Origin: Candidatus Asgardarchaeum abyssi
GTDB taxonomy: Archaea > Asgardarchaeota > Asgardarchaeia > Asgardarchaeales > Asgardarchaeaceae
Reading direction: 5' to 3'
Assembly (NCBI GenBank): GCA_040225955.1
Contig: JBECUL010000006.1
Span: forward strand, 1-64,000
DNA: 64,000 nucleotides
The notes beneath the pieces were generated by a model. That model did not search any database, was not told the origin of the DNA, and saw only the letters and a list, made by a program, of their open reading frames with translations. The first letter of the stretch is position 1. Every line of letters starts with the position of its first letter. Position numbers and translations under genes: made by a program. Of this stretch, positions 452 through 17,613 are shown in pieces.

Positions 452-1432
452 ATGATAAACCTTGAACTCAATAAAAAGAGCTTTAAGCTTTGTAACAAGC
501 TTATTAAAGAATCAAGAAAATTAAACATTGGAACACTCTCTCTAAGGAATGATGCGAAAATAATAGACTGTGGGATAAATCATATTGGTGGCTTCGAAGC
601 TGCTAAAATTGTAACTGAAATAGCACTTGGTGGTCTGGCTGAAGCAGAAATTCATACTAAAATGTATGATAGTGTAAAATTAAAAGAAATTACAGTTAAA
701 ATCAAATACCCCGCTATAGCTACACTTTGCTCACAAGCAGCATTTCCAATATACTCAGATCAAAAAACTCAATTTTATATCTGCGGACCCGGGAGAGCCC
801 TCTTTCGCTTGCCAAGGGAGATATTTGATTTTTTAAACTATTATGAAGACTCGGATGTTGCAGTTTTCATAATTCAAGATAATGAATTCCCTTCTCTGCA
901 ATTTGTTGAAAGAATCGTGAGAGATATAAAAGTGAATCCGGAAAATCTTTGTTTTATTATAACGCCAGTACCCAGTATTTGTGGTAATACACAAGTATGT
1001 GCTAAAGCTGTAGAATCCGTAATTTTCACTCTGTACCAAGCTTTTAAATGGGATATCCGTAAAATATCCTATGCTGAGGGAGTAACACCTATAGTTCCTT
1101 CTTATCAAAGTGAAAGAGGATCACAAGGAGGCTCAACACCAGACGATTTTATATTCTATGGGAGCTCCGTTAAGCTTCTCGTTGATGACATCTCTGAAAT
1201 TGAGGATATCGCACCAAGTCTCACTTTTAAGTCAACAAAGGTGTATGGTAAGACATTCCTTGAAATACTAAAAGAGGCAAATGGCGATGTAAGAAATATT
1301 GACGGCTACCCTCATGTATTCCTCCCCGCAGAAATAATAATCACGGATAAAAATGGAAATACCATAAAATACGGTAGTGTAGAAGTTAAACGAATTGCCT
1401 CAATGGCAAAAACATTAATTAAATCAATATAA
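452..1432 (+). CDS. Divergent methenyltetrahydromethanopterin cyclohydrolase (Mch)-like protein
   Basis: IIDCGI..GGFEA, EIALGGL, GPGRAL, YGKTF and length fit the Mch family; several conserved motifs are altered (see findings). RBS GGTGAG upstream. Confidence 0.75.
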   Translation: MINLELNKKSFKLCNKLIKESRKLNIGTLSLRNDAKIIDCGINHIGGFEAAKIVTEIALGGLAEAEIHTKMYDSVKLKEITVKIKYPAIATLCSQAAFPIYSDQKTQFYICGPGRALFRLPREIFDFLNYYEDSDVAVFIIQDNEFPSLQFVERIVRDIKVNPENLCFIITPVPSICGNTQVCAKAVESVIFTLYQAFKWDIRKISYAEGVTPIVPSYQSERGSQGGSTPDDFIFYGSSVKLLVDDISEIEDIAPSLTFKSTKVYGKTFLEILKEANGDVRNIDGYPHVFLPAEIIITDKNGNTIKYGSVEVKRIASMAKTLIKSI

Positions 1433-2788
1433 GAAAAGGTTCTTAGGGACATCCCATCTTTGTTTTCTCTCATTCCAAAATGGTACAGTTTCGAGCAATC
1501 CCTTACTTCCAATATTGTAGTATCGCATAATTATTTTAATATTATCACAAATTCCATCTAAGAGGGCTTTTATTCGAAAAACGGTTTCATCTAATTTATC
1601 TGGTGGTACTTCGAGAAAAGCAATAATTCCACTATTGGTTAGTGTCATGAAATAAAGTGGGAAGAAATTACCGAAAAATCTACTTATTATGTTGCTTAGA
1701 GAGTCAATTTCATCTTCTGGAAAATCTAAAATTATCAATATTGAGCTTGTGAGACCTATATTATTGAGCCGTGCATATGGTTTTAAAGCAGTGTTAAAGA
1801 AAATCTTACGCTTTCTTGAAATTTCTTGAATGGTCACATCATAACCTAATCTTAACATAGTCTCTCTGATTTCACTTAAGGTCATCCTAGCTTTATTCAT
1901 CAAAAGAAATAACAATGTTAAATCCTTTTGCTTAAGTGCGAAATTGAATGAGCAATGCTTATAGTAAAGGAAATCTGGAGGAGAATACAAATTGTAATTC
2001 TCCTTCAAAAAATTAAATGAATAGACCATTTTAAGGGAATCAAAATACCAATTAGTGCCATCATAAAAATCTAAATTGACTCCATAAGTTATTGCCTTTT
2101 GTTCGTATAGGTCAAAATATGAAATAATATGTTTTTGATAGAGAGAGATTATGAACTTCTTAAATTTATTAATTACACTTTTATTGTTCGGAATATAAAA
2201 AACAGCCCAGCCACTAATAAGACCTCTTATCTCTGTAAAAACGTCTGTATTTATATTCATAGTAAAAGGAGTATCTATCTTATTTTTTAAAATCGAGACC
2301 TTATCTTTTTCAACAACAAAATATAAGAAAAAGCGTTTCATCTTTATACAAAAAGGATTTAAGAAGCTTGCGAAGTGAATTTTAAACCATTCAGAAACCT
2401 CTGTAAATTTTCTTTTTGCTGTAGGTTTGCTAATTTTCATTTTAAAAGCAAGATCTTTATATGAGATTAATGGATTTGACACTATAATTTTTAGAATATT
2501 CATATGTTCAAGTGTTACTTTTGGTTTTTCTCTAAAAAGGTCTGAAAATAAATTGATTATTAGATTAGCATCTCTTATTTTGTACCTTTTAATCCCTTTT
2601 AATCTTTGAATGATTTCAAATGCTCTCGATGAAGAGTAAGAAAAACTATCTGGTGTTATATATTTTATGTATTTGGGAACTGTTACTATTTTTCGTTGAA
2701 AAATATATTGCTTGAGAAGGCTATATAGCTCCTTAACAGCAGGATCGTCCACCGGTGGTATAAATATAGAGTCATTAACATGATGCAT
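1424..2788 (-). CDS. Transcriptional regulator with two wHTH/Lrp-AsnC-like modules (paralogue of 16180..17613)
   Basis: HTH-like NPLISYKDLAFKMKISKPTAKRKF and second KARMTLSEIRETMLRLGYDVTIQEISRK, each followed by an alpha/beta domain; shares IKRY, GWA.F.IP, N.DFYDG..W.FD and FW.E.KQRW with 16180..17613. Confidence 0.7.
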   Translation of the reverse strand: MHHVNDSIFIPPVDDPAVKELYSLLKQYIFQRKIVTVPKYIKYITPDSFSYSSSRAFEIIQRLKGIKRYKIRDANLIINLFSDLFREKPKVTLEHMNILKIIVSNPLISYKDLAFKMKISKPTAKRKFTEVSEWFKIHFASFLNPFCIKMKRFFLYFVVEKDKVSILKNKIDTPFTMNINTDVFTEIRGLISGWAVFYIPNNKSVINKFKKFIISLYQKHIISYFDLYEQKAITYGVNLDFYDGTNWYFDSLKMVYSFNFLKENYNLYSPPDFLYYKHCSFNFALKQKDLTLLFLLMNKARMTLSEIRETMLRLGYDVTIQEISRKRKIFFNTALKPYARLNNIGLTSSILIILDFPEDEIDSLSNIISRFFGNFFPLYFMTLTNSGIIAFLEVPPDKLDETVFRIKALLDGICDNIKIIMRYYNIGSKGLLETVPFWNERKQRWDVPKNLFLY

Positions 2789-2883
2789 AATATCACTTAT
2801 TTAATTTGTTAAACATTACAACTATTTTTTCTTTACTTTTTAAAAATTTTTCCTATAAATTGTTATAAATACGTTAATATAAT

Positions 2884-2994
2884 CTCTTATTTTTTTTAAT
2901 TGAATATTATTCTTCCTTATTTTTTTAAAATAATTAATCTTCATTTATATTTTTTTAAAAAAAGAAATAACACACCTCCTTATATATTCCTTAA
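2884..2994. promoter_or_regulatory. Four roughly 30-bp-phased pyrimidine-TTAT-T-tract-AA boxes in the divergent regulator/peptide promoter
   Basis: CTCTTATTTTTTTTAA (2884), TTCCTTATTTTTTTAA (2913), TCATTTATATTTTTTTAA (2941), CTCCTTATATATTCCTTAA (2976); box ends spaced 29, 30 and 36 bp. Confidence 0.35.
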
Positions 2995-3030
2995 AAAGTA
3001 TTTGAAAGTAATATATTCATGGTGATAAAA

Positions 3031-3186
3031 ATGAATGAGAAAGTATTGAAGACATTATATTTAGTATATAAATATAGAGTGCTAATAATCCTAGGCATAG
3101 TCCTTGTATTATCAATGCTAGGTATCGTAGCCCCAACTATTGCAGATGAGGGATGTCCTCCAAATCCTGAACCTATCAGTGGTTAA
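3031..3186 (+). CDS. Small secreted peptide precursor, 51 aa (MNEKVLKTLYLVYKYRVLIILGIVLVLSMLGIVAPTIA-DEGCPPNPEPISG)
   Basis: RBS GGTGA at 3021-3025, ATG 3031, TAA 3184-3186; basic n-region, hydrophobic h-region, TIA|D site; paralogue at 15864..16016. Below the ORF-track cutoff. Confidence 0.8.
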   Translation: MNEKVLKTLYLVYKYRVLIILGIVLVLSMLGIVAPTIADEGCPPNPEPISG

Positions 3187-3208: not shown

Positions 3209-3430
3209 ATGGTACTCATAGAGAAACCTATAGTGTCTAGTAGGCAGGTAATTGGTCCTGATAGTGAATTGGATGAGCATAGGGCACTCGCCCTATTCTA
3301 TACGCTTCTTGAGAACACGTTGATAAAAATTCTTCCACCTGGGAACTTGGAAATAGCGTACGACACTGGAATTATTAAGGTTCTAATACACAAAAATGAT
3401 AAAGGTGAGGTTGTCCTTGAAGTCTATTGA
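3209..3430 (+). CDS. Small hypothetical protein (73 aa), probable homologue of 15604..15843
   Basis: RBS GGAGG upstream; last 49 aa align without gaps to the 15604 ORF (shared R, L, AY, K, N..G.V). Confidence 0.7.
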   Translation: MVLIEKPIVSSRQVIGPDSELDEHRALALFYTLLENTLIKILPPGNLEIAYDTGIIKVLIHKNDKGEVVLEVY

Positions 3431-3803
3431 TAGGAGGCGAGTATCATCTTCCTCTTTTTATATTTCTGTTCTGGATGTGCCATTTTTTATCGATTTTCTC
3501 ATCGAGAACGGATGGATGATAGAATACATTTGTGTGGAAAAGAGCGATGAATTTGGAAGAGGGCTGATGAAGTACTTTTCAATAAGCGGAAATATTCGTA
3601 AATTTATTGAGAACAATATTTTCTCAATAAGAGAGATTAAATTGATTTTCTTCAATGTAAGTAAAACTTATGAGATAATAATATCTGCAGGGAAAATAAG
3701 AAGTAGCCTCAAGAATGACATTTTGGCAAAGCTACTTAAAGAGTTCGAGGAAATAAAAGAAAATTTGAAGCTTAGAATTAACGCTGATTTTGGAGTATTC
3801 TGA
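3396..3803 (+). CDS. Hypothetical protein (start uncertain, possibly TTG after GGTGAGG)
   Basis: 135-aa ORF overlapping the upstream gene; no motif recognised. Confidence 0.55.
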   Translation: MIKVRLSLKSIDRRRVSSSSFYISVLDVPFFIDFLIENGWMIEYICVEKSDEFGRGLMKYFSISGNIRKFIENNIFSIREIKLIFFNVSKTYEIIISAGKIRSSLKNDILAKLLKEFEEIKENLKLRINADFGVF

Positions 3804-4349
3804 TTAGATCTTTCGCTCCGGTAAAATTGCGTATAGGAATATTAATGAGAGTGGAACTCCAACCAAAATGAGTATGGGTATTCCGTAGTATATCAAAAAC
3901 GTTGCTAGTGCTACAAAGAATACTATAGTCAATGCAACTCCAACGATATACCCCTGTTTTCCTCTTGGTACTATCTCAACGCCGATATGATGTAATAGCT
4001 CAACTAGGATTATCTCTAGAAATGCTATATAGAGGCCTATCACTGGCTGTTCCGCTACGAATATAGTTTCGTAAGTCCATATTATGATAACTATGCTAGC
4101 TGCTCCATATAGTCCCATTGCGATTGAGAACGTATAACGGTTTTCAGTCTTGATAATTATTGGGAATATCAAGGCTAAATAGATTACAAAAACTTTAATT
4201 TTTGTTTCTAGCATCATTGGAATTGGTGAATATTCAAGTGCGAAATAACCAATTAACATGAAAATTACTAATAGAATAATTTGCGTTGAGGTTTTAAATC
4301 TATATTGGGTCTGAAGTCTTTCTATAATTTCTTCCGACGGCTCACCCAT
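3804..4349 (-). CDS. Integral membrane protein (~6 TM)
   Basis: Multiple hydrophobic segments; RBS GGAGGG; co-oriented with 4361..5290. Confidence 0.75.
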   Translation of the reverse strand: MGEPSEEIIERLQTQYRFKTSTQIILLVIFMLIGYFALEYSPIPMMLETKIKVFVIYLALIFPIIIKTENRYTFSIAMGLYGAASIVIIIWTYETIFVAEQPVIGLYIAFLEIILVELLHHIGVEIVPRGKQGYIVGVALTIVFFVALATFLIYYGIPILILVGVPLSLIFLYAILPERKI

Positions 4350-4360
4350 TTTACACCCTC

Positions 4361-5290
4361 CTACTCAGATTTTATAGATGGAACGAGACCTTTAGCCCTC
4401 CAAAGCATAAGGGTTCTTGCATGTCTCTTTCTCCATCCTAGACTTCCAAGCATAAGTGTTCGGATAACAAAGAACATCTCACGTGGATAAGGCATGTTCT
4501 TGAAAACGATAGGTTTTTTGTGTCCTTTAACCTTTACTACAATGTCTCCTATTGGATAGTCGCCAAAGTAGTTGAATAATTTCTGCAGCGGAGAGATTTG
4601 TATATCAACACCTGTAATGTGCCCTCTACTTATCCTTCCGCTAAGTTCATCCGATAGCGACTGGTCGTAACTTATTCCACTAAGCTCACCGATGATTACG
4701 GAATATCTTTCCTTAGCCCAGCCCTTTATAATATTGTCCAGTGCATCGACAAATACTATTCCGAAGGCTATTAAGAATACTAGAAATACTGGTAATGTGT
4801 TTTCACCACCAGGAAGAACTGAGATCAAATATGCTCGGACACTTGGAAGTAAGTTAAAATATACTGCTAGGGTAAAGGCTACAATTGTGAGAAATAGTCC
4901 ATAAATCCCCAAGAAGTATATATGTAGAAAATACGGATGTTGATAGGCACCATAAAGTATATTATCATCCCTAGTTATTCTCAAGGCCCTTATGTAATCT
5001 TTCTCCGTCAGAAAAACAAGAGGATCCTTAAGTCTATACCATCCACCTTTAGATGTAGTAAGGATACCCTTATTGACCAGCTTTTTAAGCTGCTTTTCAA
5101 TTACTGGCTCTGGCAGATCTGAATACTCTTTTAATTTAGCGATCGTGAATCTTCTTTCGTCAATGAAGTGCTCAACGATCACATCTATAACCTTCTCAAG
5201 GTTGCTGCCAACACTAGCAATCTTCCATCCTATAATCACAAATACTGCAAACATGATAATAATAATCGGAATTAAATACTCTACTAGCAT
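4361..5290 (-). CDS. Membrane protein with an N-terminal TM, wHTH-like domain, two further TMs and a soluble C-terminal domain
   Basis: FTIAKLKEYSDLPEPVIEKQLKKLVNKGILTTSKGGWY is wHTH-like; hydrophobic helices flank it. Confidence 0.65.
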   Translation of the reverse strand: MLVEYLIPIIIIMFAVFVIIGWKIASVGSNLEKVIDVIVEHFIDERRFTIAKLKEYSDLPEPVIEKQLKKLVNKGILTTSKGGWYRLKDPLVFLTEKDYIRALRITRDDNILYGAYQHPYFLHIYFLGIYGLFLTIVAFTLAVYFNLLPSVRAYLISVLPGGENTLPVFLVFLIAFGIVFVDALDNIIKGWAKERYSVIIGELSGISYDQSLSDELSGRISRGHITGVDIQISPLQKLFNYFGDYPIGDIVVKVKGHKKPIVFKNMPYPREMFFVIRTLMLGSLGWRKRHARTLMLWRAKGLVPSIKSE

Positions 5291-7113: not shown

Positions 7114-8535
7114 ATGAATTCTCGAATGATTCCGGAAGTGCAGAAATTTTTAGAGACTGATGGAAATACAATTTTACTCATAAGAGGTGAGGCAGGGACT
7201 GGAAAAACAATATTTTCTCTGGAATTGGTAAACTTTTACGCTAGGATGGTGCCTGCGTTTTACTTCACTTCTAGGGTTGATGTGCCTTCTCTTTTTGGTC
7301 AATTTCCATGGATAAGAGAGAACATTGGTGAGGATCTGATATTCGATATCACTAGATCTTCTGCGAGGCGTATTAAAAAACATAAGTTGGAATTTAGTTT
7401 TAGTACAATTCAAGAGTTTCTACAAAATATATATCTACTACTCGAAGAGGTAGGTATGGAAAAGAAAAAGGTAGTGGTAATTGATAGTATTGATGCCCTT
7501 TCAGAGCTTTTTGATTTACCGATGAATAAAATTATAACCGGGCTTCAAGATGTTGCGATAAATGCAAATACGAAATTTATTGTCATCTCTGAAACTGTTG
7601 GAGCGAAAGATATCGAATATCTTTCCGATGGGGTAATTACATTAACCAAAGAATATCACGATAATAGAATCTTAAGATCTCTTATTATAGATAAACTTAG
7701 AGGCGTTGAGGTAAAATCAAGTATATACTTCTTTACTCTAAAAGATGGACGAATTATGTTTCTCGAGAATTATCCCATATTTATCAGTGCTATTGATGTT
7801 AAGGCGAAACATCCAATAATCAACGATCGAGAGGAATCAAGGTTCTTTGAGAGAAATGCTTTTAGCACTGGGAATAGCGATTTTGATAAAATTATTAAAG
7901 GATATCAAAAAGGCAGTTTTGTTGTATTCCAAGTGGATAAGACTGTCATATGGTCAAATATTTTGGATATAGTTTCCCATACCGTAGAGAACTTCTTACT
8001 GCAAAATAGAGGTGTTATCATAGTTCCAACGTCAGGTTTCAGCCCTATTTACTTTAGAAATATGTTCTCCAGGCTTGTAGGTCCTGAAGTGTTTGAAGAA
8101 AATTGTATCGTTTTCATGCCCGGATTGCACGAGTCGACCGAGTATAAATGGCTTAAATCTGTTTCTCCAACACCAGAGGACGTTTATAATGGAATAATGG
8201 ATACATATAGTGACTTTACAAAAAGATTCAAAGAGGTGTTAGTTCTCCTCGGGATGGACTTCTTTGAAACATATTTTGGGTCTCAACAAACAGAGAGAAT
8301 CGTTATGAAAATAATCTCAATTGTGAAAATAGACCAGAATCTTGCAATAGGCCTTGTTAATAATGATTCTCCAATAACCACTAAACTTGTAAGGATGAGT
8401 GACTACATTTTTAATGTCTTTTCGAGAAGTGGGAAACTCTTTATGTACGGCGTTTTACCAGCAACAAATATTCTCAATATAAACTTAGATGTATCCGGCC
8501 CCCATCCAATTACTCGATATATAGAGATACTGTGA
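7114..8535 (+). CDS. KaiC/GvpD-like RecA-superfamily P-loop ATPase (active N-domain, degenerate second domain)
   Basis: Walker A GEAGTGKT, Walker B VVIDS, EYLSDGVITL, IDKLRG; second domain begins FSTGNSDFDKII without a Walker A. Confidence 0.8.
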   Translation: MNSRMIPEVQKFLETDGNTILLIRGEAGTGKTIFSLELVNFYARMVPAFYFTSRVDVPSLFGQFPWIRENIGEDLIFDITRSSARRIKKHKLEFSFSTIQEFLQNIYLLLEEVGMEKKKVVVIDSIDALSELFDLPMNKIITGLQDVAINANTKFIVISETVGAKDIEYLSDGVITLTKEYHDNRILRSLIIDKLRGVEVKSSIYFFTLKDGRIMFLENYPIFISAIDVKAKHPIINDREESRFFERNAFSTGNSDFDKIIKGYQKGSFVVFQVDKTVIWSNILDIVSHTVENFLLQNRGVIIVPTSGFSPIYFRNMFSRLVGPEVFEENCIVFMPGLHESTEYKWLKSVSPTPEDVYNGIMDTYSDFTKRFKEVLVLLGMDFFETYFGSQQTERIVMKIISIVKIDQNLAIGLVNNDSPITTKLVRMSDYIFNVFSRSGKLFMYGVLPATNILNINLDVSGPHPITRYIEIL

Positions 8536-13986: not shown

Positions 13987-14694
13987 GTGAAAAATATGAA
14001 ATGTCCCAAAAAAGTATCCGCGATTATAATCATGTTGATAACTTTAAGTTTGCTCACTCAACCTGTAGCTGTATTTGGCAATAATATAGAATGGGGCGTA
14101 AAAGAAGGTGATACGATCACATGGACTGTTGTCATAGCTCCGAATACTACATTTTGGTGGTGGGACCCAGTTACTGGTCTCGTAAAGGTTAAGGTGAACG
14201 AAGGGGACATAATGGAGTATAACATTACAAAAATAGACGATGATACACTATACGGTGATTTTAAGATAGGGAATCTAACAGTAGCGAATGTAACAACAGA
14301 TACTATTGGCATGAATCTCGTCTTTGGATTATGGCCATTTATCACAGGTCCTGTTGTTAAACCAGATTGGCAGAATATAACATCTAAGGCTGAGGACTGT
14401 AATGTTAAGACAATAGAAGAAAGTAACTTTGAATGGTATCTTGGGCTACCAAGAAATGTGATAACATTTGCGAATGAGACAGATAGCGGAGCATTTAGGC
14501 TTGTGTATGAGAAAAGTACAGGAGTTATGCTTTATGGCTATGGAAGATTTGGAAAATATGAATTGGGTGTGGAGATCAAGTCAACAACAGTATCTCTTGG
14601 TATTAGCGAAATCCTCTATATTGTCGTTGGTGTCCCAATAATTGTAATAATAGCTATAGTTATAGCAAGTATGTTTATTAAGAAAAAAGAATAA
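13987..14694 (+). CDS. Secreted/surface protein with signal peptide and C-terminal TM anchor
   Basis: N-terminal signal peptide, WGVKEGD motif, N-x-T sequons, C-terminal TM followed by KKKE. Confidence 0.75.
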   Translation: MKNMKCPKKVSAIIIMLITLSLLTQPVAVFGNNIEWGVKEGDTITWTVVIAPNTTFWWWDPVTGLVKVKVNEGDIMEYNITKIDDDTLYGDFKIGNLTVANVTTDTIGMNLVFGLWPFITGPVVKPDWQNITSKAEDCNVKTIEESNFEWYLGLPRNVITFANETDSGAFRLVYEKSTGVMLYGYGRFGKYELGVEIKSTTVSLGISEILYIVVGVPIIVIIAIVIASMFIKKKE

Positions 14695-15487
14695 CTCCTC
14701 TATTTTTTCTTAAAATAAGAAGAAGCGCAGGAGTTTTTTTATCATGTGAGAATACAGGACCAAAACTTTCTTTTTTTATAAAAGTAAACCCCACTTTTTC
14801 TAAAATTCCCATAAACTCTTCAAAATTTAGTCCAACTTGGGGTTCATAAAAGAGTATTCTTCCGTTTGGCTTTAAAACACGCCAATTTTCTCTTAAAAGC
14901 ACTTCCCATGATTTTCTATCAATATCATGAAACGCCCATACATATGTAACATAATCAAAATACCCATCTGGAAATGGTAGTTTCTTAGATGACCTAATAG
15001 AAACAAGTTTAAATCTATCACCCAGCTTATAAAGCTCTTTAAATTTCAAACCAACATTAATTCTCTGCTCATCAATGTCTACACCTATATAGGTACATTT
15101 CTTCTTATTTACTAATATAACTCCCAGATAGCCATAGCCGCATCCTATATCAAGTACTGTTGTCTTTTCCTTTATGTACTTACTAACGATAGCTTCACGT
15201 TCGCTTAGATAAATTATATGTGATTTAAAGTCATCTATATTACCGCCAAATCTTAACATACCACTAATAATCGCTAGAGAGCCATATAGAAAGCCAAAAT
15301 CACTTAAGAATTTATATAGCTCCTCATCAGTGTTAAAGATTTTCTTTGCAAGATTTATAAAATCTAAAGTTTTCTTCCTTAAGAAATTTGCCTCGCCCAT
15401 TCTTAAACCTCGTATAGTTGTAACTTTATGGGAAGTGGAATCTTCATAATTATTTAGGAGATATACTTCTTCATTACTATTATACAA
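14678..15487 (-). CDS. Class I SAM-dependent methyltransferase (likely start 15400)
   Basis: VLDIGCGYG, GVDID, LPFPDGYFD, RVLKPNG motifs. Confidence 0.88.
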   Translation of the reverse strand: MYNSNEEVYLLNNYEDSTSHKVTTIRGLRMGEANFLRKKTLDFINLAKKIFNTDEELYKFLSDFGFLYGSLAIISGMLRFGGNIDDFKSHIIYLSEREAIVSKYIKEKTTVLDIGCGYGYLGVILVNKKKCTYIGVDIDEQRINVGLKFKELYKLGDRFKLVSIRSSKKLPFPDGYFDYVTYVWAFHDIDRKSWEVLLRENWRVLKPNGRILFYEPQVGLNFEEFMGILEKVGFTFIKKESFGPVFSHDKKTPALLLILRKNRGVILFS

Positions 15488-15603: not shown

Positions 15604-15843
15604 TCAGAGTTCATAGATTTTTACTTTTCCCTGCTCATTGAAAACTTCGAACTCTTTATTGTCTATAACTATGTACGCTTTTACTTTTGCGTTTGTCAAT
15701 ATCTTAGACTTTACTATATCGGCAAAGAGTTCAAAAGCAGCACCAATAGTCCTAATATCCTCATCATAAAATTTAGTAACATCTTCTATTTTTATCTTCT
15801 CAGTATAAAATTCTCTATAAAGAGAGGAAAGAAAGGTTCTCAT
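15604..15843 (-). CDS. Small hypothetical protein (79 aa), probable homologue of 3209..3430
   Basis: RBS GGTGA then ATG at 15843 (the track uses GTG 15852); ungapped C-terminal alignment with the 3209 ORF. Confidence 0.7.
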   Translation of the reverse strand: MRTFLSSLYREFYTEKIKIEDVTKFYDEDIRTIGAAFELFADIVKSKILTNAKVKAYIVIDNKEFEVFNEQGKVKIYEL

Positions 15844-15863: not shown

Positions 15864-16016
15864 TTACCCATCAATAGGAACTGGTATATCACCATTAGGT
15901 GGATCAGCAATGATTATTTGAAGGCCAAAATGCATGAGAATGGCATATAGTAGTAATAAACTCAATACCACAGCAAATTTGTGTTTTGCTATCCAACTTA
16001 AGATTTTCCAAATCAT
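15864..16016 (-). CDS. Small secreted peptide precursor, 50 aa (MIWKILSWIAKHKFAVVLSLLLLYAILMHFGLQIIIA-DPPNGDIPVPIDG)
   Basis: RBS GGTGA (complement of 16023-16027), ATG 16016, TAA 15864-15866; signal-peptide architecture and IA|D...PxPIxG shared with 3031..3186. Not in the ORF track. Confidence 0.8.
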   Translation of the reverse strand: MIWKILSWIAKHKFAVVLSLLLLYAILMHFGLQIIIADPPNGDIPVPIDG

Positions 16017-16179: not shown

Positions 16180-17613
16180 ATGATAAAATTTATATCCAAT
16201 GATAGGAATATTTCTCCTAAAATGAAAGAGGGAGGAAAAATATCTCTTAGGGATTTATTAACTCCACCGATTAAAGATAAAGAGGTTATTGAATGGTACA
16301 AATTAATAGAGATTTATTTTAAAATCCTTAGTGGTGAGTCTGTGGAATATCCGAAGTTTAAATATGTTACTGTTAATCCAAAATATATTTTAAAAACAAA
16401 AGAGCAAGAGGAAAAGATAATACATAGATTAAGGCTAATAAAGAGGTATCGCCTCACAGATCCAATTGTGATAACAAAAATAATAAAATCCGCTTTTGAT
16501 ACTCCAAAGTATAAGTTAGACAGTGATGAACTCAAATTTTTAAAAACTTTATTAGGCAATCCTAATGATAAAATCAACAAAATTGCGAAAAAGGCGAAGA
16601 TACCAGTTAGTACTGCATATAGAATATATAAAAAGATGAAAAACGTAATTCTTCTGCGGAGATTTGGATATCCCGATCTATCTAGATTTAGACTTAAGCA
16701 TTTCGTAGTAGTTTTCAAGTTCTATGAGGATAAAATGAATCTTCTGAGACGAAAAATGCCACTAAATCCCTTTCTTTTCACTTTTAATGTAGATGCTATT
16801 AATGTCTATGATGGTAAGGCTTTTGGATGGGCTTCATTTAGAATACCTGATTCTAAAAAGGTATTGAGGGAGTTTAATGATTGGCTTGTCTCTTTCAAAA
16901 CGGAGCTTGGTGTGTTCCCGGACGAGGAGAGCTGGGAGGTTATTGAAGCAAAACGGTTTATTTTTTCAGCCAATATCGATTTTTATGACGGAGAAAAATG
17001 GGTGTTTGATGAGACTCTTATGAGTGTGGGTCTCTTAAAATTTGTAGAAAAATTTGACATTTATATAAATAAACCAATAATAAATATTGAATTCAACAGT
17101 AAACCGATAAGATTTGATAAAATAGATTTAATTCTTCTTGAGTTGCTTCAGAAAGACTATTTCTATAAGTTGTCTTCTGCATGTAATATCTTAGAAAAAG
17201 AAGGCTATATAAGAAGCGAAAAAAACATATCTAGGCGTTTTGAAAGGCTGAGAAACTATGTTAAGCCAGGTGTTGTTTTTGCAGGACTTAATCTAGCGGA
17301 CTCACTAAACCTCTTCATATCAACATCAGACAAAGGAACACGTGATCTTATTCATAAATTCTTGCTATACTTGCCTATTGTATATATAGTTGAGTCTAAT
17401 AGCGATATGATTATCTACATTCAGCTACCGAAAGGCACGGCCATAAAATTTCTCTACCAATTTAATGAACTGAAAAACATGGTTAATGAGTTTTTAGGCA
17501 TTGTTGTCGCATATAGTCATGGCGCAAAGATAAGAGTTAAGCTTCACGAGTTTTGGGATGAGAAAAAGCAAAGATGGATAATACCTGATGGAATAATGCA
17601 CGGAATGTATTAA
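16180..17613 (+). CDS. Transcriptional regulator with two wHTH/Lrp-AsnC-like modules (paralogue of 1424..2788)
   Basis: NPNDKINKIAKKAKIPVSTAYRIY HTH; second DKIDLILLELLQ...GYIRSEKNISRRF; shared blocks with 1424..2788. Start uncertain. Confidence 0.72.
   Translation: MIKFISNDRNISPKMKEGGKISLRDLLTPPIKDKEVIEWYKLIEIYFKILSGESVEYPKFKYVTVNPKYILKTKEQEEKIIHRLRLIKRYRLTDPIVITKIIKSAFDTPKYKLDSDELKFLKTLLGNPNDKINKIAKKAKIPVSTAYRIYKKMKNVILLRRFGYPDLSRFRLKHFVVVFKFYEDKMNLLRRKMPLNPFLFTFNVDAINVYDGKAFGWASFRIPDSKKVLREFNDWLVSFKTELGVFPDEESWEVIEAKRFIFSANIDFYDGEKWVFDETLMSVGLLKFVEKFDIYINKPIINIEFNSKPIRFDKIDLILLELLQKDYFYKLSSACNILEKEGYIRSEKNISRRFERLRNYVKPGVVFAGLNLADSLNLFISTSDKGTRDLIHKFLLYLPIVYIVESNSDMIIYIQLPKGTAIKFLYQFNELKNMVNEFLGIVVAYSHGAKIRVKLHEFWDEKKQRWIIPDGIMHGMY

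Follow-up and report, generated by a model that had tools for sequence, protein, structure and literature searches.

The window analysed here, that is, the whole 64,000-nucleotide stretch of the Candidatus Asgardarchaeum abyssi contig shown above, contains two copies of a small gene cassette, termed A and B, with a common layout: a very short gene (pepA or pepB) is divergent from a 454-477-aa gene, the regulator, and is followed about 20 nt on by a 73-79-aa gene, the companion (Table 1). In cassette A the two divergent genes lie 242 nt apart, an arrangement that recurs in other genomes, and pepA would head a small operon encoding the peptide, the companion of about 70 aa and a 135-aa protein, opposite a protein with a tandem Lrp/AsnC fold. 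A further cassette, termed C12 after its contig, is found elsewhere in the same genome (G000).

Table 1. Features of cassettes A and B in the window and of related peptide genes.
Feature	Location	Strand	Description
Regulator A, tandem Lrp/AsnC-fold	1424..2788	-	454 aa; divergent from pepA; Pfam HTH_24; AF2 model pLDDT 89.8
Shared intergenic region	2789..3030	.	block at about 2800-2850, next to the regulator start, conserved with orthologous locus L106
Shine-Dalgarno GGTGA	3021..3025	+	read directly; separated by 5 nt from the ATG at 3031; 16 times as frequent at long-ORF starts as at all ATGs
pepA	3031..3186	+	51 codons plus stop; seen as ORF, in a strain variant, in orthologue L106 and in public gene calls
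pepA leader	3031..3144	+	38 codons; basic n-region followed by 22 uncharged residues that end in Pro (-4) and T-I-A (-3 to -1); 55% identical in L106
pepA conserved core D1-I11 (DEGCPPNPEPI)	3145..3177	+	11 residues; 9/11 identical in L106; in register with pepB and the leaderless C12 peptide
pepA extra C-terminal Ser-Gly	3178..3183	+	x-Gly common to pepB and the C27 peptide; pair missing from orthologue L106
Companion A	3209..3430	+	73 aa; 22 nt after pepA; own GGAGG; model pLDDT 89
Overlapping 135-aa ORF	3396..3803	+	fourth gene of cassette A; homologues in the C12 cassette and L106
Companion B	15604..15843	-	79 aa
pepB	15864..16016	-	paralogous leader-bearing peptide, tail DPPNGDIPVPIDG
Regulator B	16180..17613	+	477 aa; divergent from pepB; shares 25% identity with regulator A and groups with A and C12 in one clade
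Leaderless C12 peptide M-R-DDADPIDPTPF	G000 contig C12, 34766-34807 (= L014, about 3137-3178)	+	13 codons
Leader-bearing members			pepA, pepB, L106, L105, L104, L109, the G028 and G041 peptides, and an S-P-A subgroup in G011, G022 and G041

A 51-aa open reading frame with a GGTGA ribosome-binding site had been proposed at the pepA position from the letters alone, and both elements are indeed present. A second in-frame ATG at 3019 would lengthen the product from 51 to 55 aa and overlaps the GGTGA sequence. Taking all ATGs of this genome together, 0.84% have GGTGA 4-14 nt upstream, versus 13% of long-ORF starts, so that the motif can be regarded as an informative Shine-Dalgarno sequence, favouring 3031 as the start of pepA. 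The Shine-Dalgarno sequence, the spacer and the start codon are moreover base-for-base identical in L106, a more distant syntenic orthologous locus from another organism. When the pepA tail was compared to a strain variant (L024), two synonymous changes and no non-synonymous change were observed, and the 22-nt spacer following the pepA stop codon carried several changes. Between pepA and L106, the 11 core codons comprise 4 identical, 5 synonymous and 2 non-synonymous positions, and the leader codons 10 identical, 11 synonymous and 17 non-synonymous ones. These substitution patterns indicate that pepA is a genuine gene under purifying selection. It had been described as unannotated, which holds only for the gene track available to that first reading: both the 51-aa and the 55-aa forms are already called, without a name, in public protein sets (NCBI, JGI/IMG, ENA, Logan), and the same four sources also contain pepB as a nameless gene.

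The combination of features seen in pepA is rare in its genome. Only seven stop-to-stop frames in the 2.6 Mb end in the pattern P-x-P-[ITVL]-x(0,1)-G, and the three that lie beside regulator homologues are pepA, pepB and a 23-codon ORF on contig C27. A looser architecture, consisting of a hydrophobic leader and a Pro-rich tail, was detected in 18 of 12,462 ORFs of 30-80 aa, among which pepA and pepB alone sit at most 250 nt from a regulator. A word-index search of 5.8 billion proteins with pepA alone as query returned nothing beyond its own cluster.

The L106 locus allowed us to compare conservation part by part. It consists of a 455-aa HTH gene, a called 51-aa gene, a 73-aa companion and genes of 127, 183 and 307 aa, and its peptide reads ...A-T-I-A/DDGAPPNPEPI, the slash marking the proposed junction between leader and core. 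Identity between locus A and L106 reaches 82% in the core, compared to 55% in the leader, 51% in the regulator, 45% in the companion and 44% in the 135-aa ORF; judged by these alignments, the core is the most conserved part of cassette A. The cassette is flanked by two reverse-strand genes encoding a multi-pass membrane protein (3804-4349) and a wHTH protein with membrane segments (4361-5290), which are respectively 77% and 73% identical in L106 versus 44-55% for the cassette. Cassette A thus appears, at the level of sequence, as a fast-evolving island amid slow-evolving neighbours.

The pepA product can be read as two modules, a probable Sec-type N-terminal leader and an acidic, proline-rich core of 11-13 residues. 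The n-region carries a net charge of +3 (K4, K7, K14, R16, E3) and is followed by 22 uncharged residues up to Ala38, Asp at +1 and a tail, DEGCPPNPEPISG, of 13 residues with a net charge of -4, in which the core follows the pattern D-x3-P-x2-P-x-P-I(-S-G). The K/R-rich n-region and the hydrophobic region of about 20 aa that had been proposed are therefore both recognizable, and so is the proposed fit of T-I-A/D to the (-3,-1) rule, with Pro at -4. Across the 12 leader-bearing members of the family, position -1 is occupied by Ala (ten members), Gly (one) or Met (one) and position -3 by Thr, Ile, Val or Ala, the n-regions range in net charge from 0 to +5 and the tails from -1 to -4. T-I-A/D is retained in L106, the T-I-A codons differing from those of pepA by synonymous changes only, and positions -4 to -6 vary. 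Several features expected of a type I signal peptide are found in pepA (a positively charged n-region preceding a hydrophobic span, and a c-region with a helix breaker and with small residues at both -1 and -3), and among the genes of the genome is one for an archaeal type I signal peptidase (114 bits). A class III (prepilin-type) signal was considered and discarded, since the residues preceding the hydrophobic span are K-Y-R-V, with no Gly, Ala or Ser at that place.

According to the positive-inside rule, pepA would insert with its N-terminus inside and its C-terminus outside, carrying the latter across the membrane. The archaeal type I signal peptidase would most likely cut after Ala38 and free a 13-mer, which may then be trimmed to the conserved 11-mer. 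We infer this export topology and this cleavage site from the features of the leader and of its junction. A product of 13 residues, equal in length to that of the paralogue, had been put forward; 13 residues do follow the junction in both pepA and pepB, whose own junction reads I-I-A/D and whose Shine-Dalgarno spacing falls in the same class, and strain variants of pepB change two leader residues only. The conserved unit is however the 11-mer D1-I11, the terminal Ser-Gly being absent from L106.

The main rival, and a serious one, is an uncleaved single-pass micro-membrane protein, in which a type II (N-in/C-out) anchor would tether the acidic tail on the cell surface, possibly as a displayed ligand or as the partner of a membrane protein. 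In all 12 leader-bearing members the stretch of uncharged residues ending at -1 is 21-24 long, uniformly the length of a transmembrane helix, and the charge distribution sets the same N-in/C-out topology whether the protein is cut or uncut. The large proteins of this genome that possess a single N-terminal hydrophobic segment have a median span of 23.5 residues (n = 30), so that the length of the span favours neither a cleaved signal nor an anchor. Two members offer poor contexts to a type I signal peptidase, namely L109, with Met in place of a small residue at -1, before Asp, and L057, with Pro at +1; the first of these speaks for an anchor, as does the presence in both species of the two conserved membrane-protein genes flanking cassette A. 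On the other hand, these flanking genes are missing from cassettes B, C12 and G028, the residue at -1 is small in 11 of the 12 members, and T-I-A has been kept through synonymous changes while the positions just before it drifted. We regard the anchor as rather unlikely, also in view of the relatives of pepA that have no leader at all.

These relatives belong to a family of Pro-rich micropeptides. With the companion used as an independent anchor, 21 of 22 related Asgard loci were found to have a Pro-rich micro-ORF directly upstream of it; the companion loci are situated close to a gene for a tandem Lrp/AsnC-fold protein, and divergent from it wherever the layout was read. With the regulator as anchor, many loci were found to carry ORFs of 9-14 codons close to the regulator gene (for example MEPHATNPFPF, MTPYRPNPAPIV and MYPQDPFPV), divergent from it in the cassettes that were read gene by gene. 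Most members of the family are leaderless. In the genome of the window, a leaderless peptide on contig C27 ends in PWPIDG, and the C12 peptide gene, which has a GGGTGG Shine-Dalgarno sequence and lies between the C12 regulator and companion, had been missed by a 25-aa ORF filter. pepA, pepB and the C12 peptide align without gaps as D1...P8-x-P10-hydrophobic11. Cassette A shows the layout of the family, with an acidic Pro-rich core ending in P-x-P-hydrophobic, upstream of a companion of about 70 aa and divergent from a tandem-Lrp gene. The sequence-only reading had staked its proposal on whether any homologues conserve IAD or PxPIxG; what is found is the small residue at -1 described above and a P-x-P-hydrophobic end kept family-wide. 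Our literature search found no paper describing a family of micropeptide, companion and tandem-Lrp protein. A subgroup of leader-bearing members ending in S-P-A (L003 1178-1312, L004 1162-1320, L057 1220-1372) is convergent with the 3' end of the regulator gene instead of divergent from its start, and no companion-like gene is evident after the peptide at L003 and L057.

Among sister cassettes, forms with a leader alternate with forms that have none. The cassettes of G028 and G006 correspond to each other in every gene, and their peptides read respectively leader plus DPQDPWPTG and M-YPQDPFPV. Similarly, the leaderless C12 peptide has a leader-bearing orthologue, L105, reading ...N-T-I-A/DDANPIDPTPF; of the 11 core codons, 6 are identical between the two, 4 synonymous and 1 non-synonymous. 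When the regulators were placed in a maximum-likelihood tree, A (leader) came out as sister to C12 (leaderless) with support of 100/99 and B (leader) next to both, and G006 (leaderless) as sister to G028 and G041 (leader) with support of 100/100. From these comparisons the leader appears to be a modular add-on, gained or lost between sister cassettes. The loss of the leader in C12 as compared to L105 kept the sequence from the residue following the proposed cut onward, and the fact that the C12 core starts at the residue after the T-I-A of L105 supports a cut after Ala38. The same core thus occurs in sister cassettes as a free peptide of 9-13 residues, which, together with the retention of the post-junction sequence upon leader loss, argues against the anchor since a tether is unnecessary for function. 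By the same token, the leaderless relatives within one genome imply that export is not essential to the function of the core.

The division into a leader and a short core, together with the single Cys of pepA, also recalls a RiPP-type precursor, in which the leader would serve for recognition and a Cys/Pro-rich core would be modified (thioether, disulfide, thiolactone or methylation) before export; cysteine chemistry of the first three kinds had been suggested for pepA. Enzymes that could be invoked are a SAM-dependent methyltransferase downstream of cassette B and a radical SAM-SPASM gene in the window about 22 kb off. The Cys is however replaced by Ala in the pepA orthologue and missing from the other 11 leader-bearing tails, no gene for a modifying enzyme was seen in common among cassettes A, B, C12, G028, G006 and L106, and the leader has the character of a hydrophobic export signal, dispensable in sister cassettes, and not of a conserved recognition sequence. 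As the Cys is not conserved and no shared modifying enzyme was seen, we reject the RiPP reading and the cysteine chemistry with it, and consider them very improbable. The methyltransferase gene (14678-15487, reverse strand) immediately follows cassette B, also in the strain contigs L020 and L021; because it is missing from cassettes A, C12, G028 and L106, it is probably no part of the module. A G-C-P motif like that of pepA was seen in only one other family member, a leaderless peptide of 19 codons at L096 (G015:C65), upstream of a companion match at 1501-1674 (reverse strand), whose core ends in ...EPGCPDPMPF.

The model of regulator A comprises an N-terminal helical region followed by two wHTH and RAM units (pLDDT 89.8). 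Its best match in the PDB is NirDL (E 2.6e-8), followed by many single Lrp/AsnC regulators, the structural matches including PH0061, ST1022, AsnC and NirDL. The order of elements that defines the Lrp/AsnC fold, an N-terminal wHTH and then a beta-alpha-beta-beta-alpha-beta RAM, occurs twice in the model, and at the sequence level Pfam HTH_24 is matched, the RAM domain giving no match. Both the presence of two HTH and RAM units in a single chain of 454 aa, as in the fused NirDL/AhbAB siroheme decarboxylases (4CH7), and the similarity of each unit to archaeal Lrp/AsnC (FFRP) proteins relate regulator A to these known groups, from which it differs by its additional N-terminal helical region of about 85 residues and by the missing Pfam RAM match. 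Of 400 genomes belonging to the same GTDB phylum, 120 contain the regulator family, which is concentrated in a small number of taxonomic families; two of the genomes that carry it are named Candidatus Baldrarchaeota (Promethearchaeati, the Asgard archaea).

The companion (3209-3430 and 15604-15843 in the window, L002 884-1078 and L005 3161-3364) has the fold beta-alpha-beta-beta-beta (model pLDDT 89). The structures most similar to it are consistently Roadblock/LC7/LAMTOR/MglB proteins, those of Asgard archaea among them, with Z scores of 5-6 only and a Foldseek E of about 0.09, for which reason the resemblance is treated as a lead. The companion may be a minimal Roadblock-like module tied to the peptide cassette. 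Its position behind the peptide gene is conserved in G000 (three copies), G028, G041, G006, G317, f12 and f11, and an exhaustive profile search retrieved only nine representatives of the companion family among 1.84 billion proteins.

In the region shared by pepA and regulator A, the sequence TTATATAT (2980-2987) could serve as a TATA-like element. Repeat scans of four AT-rich intergenic regions revealed no clear palindromic operator, and the alignment of the locus A intergenic region with that of L106 displays conserved blocks and no palindrome. A perfect 12-nt inverted pair, ATCACGGAAAAT and ATTTTCCGTGAT, was observed in a Baldrarchaeota cassette (L002 1273-1284 and 1406-1417), where it sits symmetrically before the divergent peptide and regulator genes; this candidate operator has no counterpart in the window loci. 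A prediction of the complex between regulator A (alignment A2) and residues 22-51 of pepA scored 0.01 against a mark of 0.32, a value that we weighed neither for nor against binding.

Taken together, these observations lead us to favour, with a probability of roughly 55%, the reading that pepA is an exported pro-peptide cut after Ala38, whose functional unit is the 11-mer D1-I11 and which acts as the cassette's own signal or ligand. The peptide would accumulate outside and act back on the cytoplasmic proteins of the cassette. We would go further only tentatively: it is possible, though on balance doubtful, that pepA and pepB are secreted pheromone-type pro-peptides, that each 11-13-mer is sensed by its own tandem-Lrp regulator, possibly with the Roadblock-like companion, and that they represent the first peptide-based cell-to-cell signalling in Archaea. 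The receptor and the signalling loop are speculative. Since all the cassette proteins look cytoplasmic, an exported peptide could reach them only by returning into the cell. No Opp/Dpp-type binding protein (SBP_bac_5) and no CstA importer were found in this 93%-complete genome, in which PTR2 remained below the cut-off and the OPT family is represented by only two transporters, unlinked to the cassettes.

Alternatively, the peptide would stay at work inside the cell, binding the companion or the tandem-Lrp protein as a partner or ligand, the leader serving only to drain or tether it as a sink, with no signalling between cells. The preponderance of leaderless members, one of which (C12) coexists here with A and B, the cytoplasmic appearance of the other cassette proteins and the failure to find an Opp-type importer are all in keeping with such a role. 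Against it, the leader is under selection in several lineages (A and B in G000, L106, L105, G028, G041 and L104), which would be costly if the site of action were cytoplasmic, and we consider this alternative improbable. Leaderless communication peptides that are still secreted are known in Firmicutes (PMC10518010), so that a missing leader is no proof of an intracellular role.

As an exported signal or ligand, pepA invites comparison with the RRNPP(A) systems of Bacillota and their phages (Rap/Phr, PlcR/PapR, Rgg/SHP, AimR/AimP). As in these systems, a tiny pro-peptide gene adjoins the gene of a cytoplasmic DNA-binding protein, an export leader precedes a C-terminal mature peptide (about 5-13 residues), and each paralogous cassette, itself fast-evolving, has its own conserved core. 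In contrast to them, the host is an Asgard archaeon, the cassette includes a companion of about 70 aa, no Opp importer was found, and binding, export and signalling are putative. The receptor candidate moreover has a tandem Lrp/AsnC fold instead of a TPR fold, and membership in RRNPP(A) therefore fails on the defining fold of the receptor. To our knowledge, the ligands of the Lrp/AsnC fold are amino acids or tetrapyrroles, not peptides. A closer parallel to the alternation between sister cassettes is provided by RopB/LCP, in whose Rgg clan leaderless and leader-bearing peptides are found within one clan of receptors (PMC10518010). Neither peptide nor receptor is homologous to those described here, and secretion and re-import, shown experimentally in Firmicutes, are putative in the present system.

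Cell-to-cell signalling in archaea is little known, as is also stated in a 2025 study in Haloferax, which described a small-molecule signal resisting proteinase K (PMC12240190). Our literature search found no paper on peptide signals in archaea, for which pepA is a concrete, albeit unproven, candidate. The locus lends itself to testing: it offers a defined peptide of 11-13 residues, a candidate receptor whose model is of high confidence and, within one genome, paralogous cassettes that differ in their cores, and the natural leader-plus/leader-minus pairs predict where the mature peptide starts. If the signalling reading is correct, communication between a peptide and its regulator would have evolved separately in the Asgard archaea, which form the lineage closest to eukaryotes, with an Lrp-type receptor of a class unrelated to the TPR receptors of Bacillota. 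Should signalling fail, the family would still reveal very short genes as a conserved, overlooked layer of Asgard gene cassettes.

Two further observations concern the remainder of the window. Three ORFs of about 454 aa at 57.6-63.1 kb, first taken as possible additional copies of the regulator, encode a UbiD protein, an amidohydrolase and an M20 peptidase. Finally, a forward-strand gene at 7114-8535, near which no gas-vesicle genes were seen, encodes a KaiC/GvpD-like P-loop ATPase with a GvpD basic-region domain.
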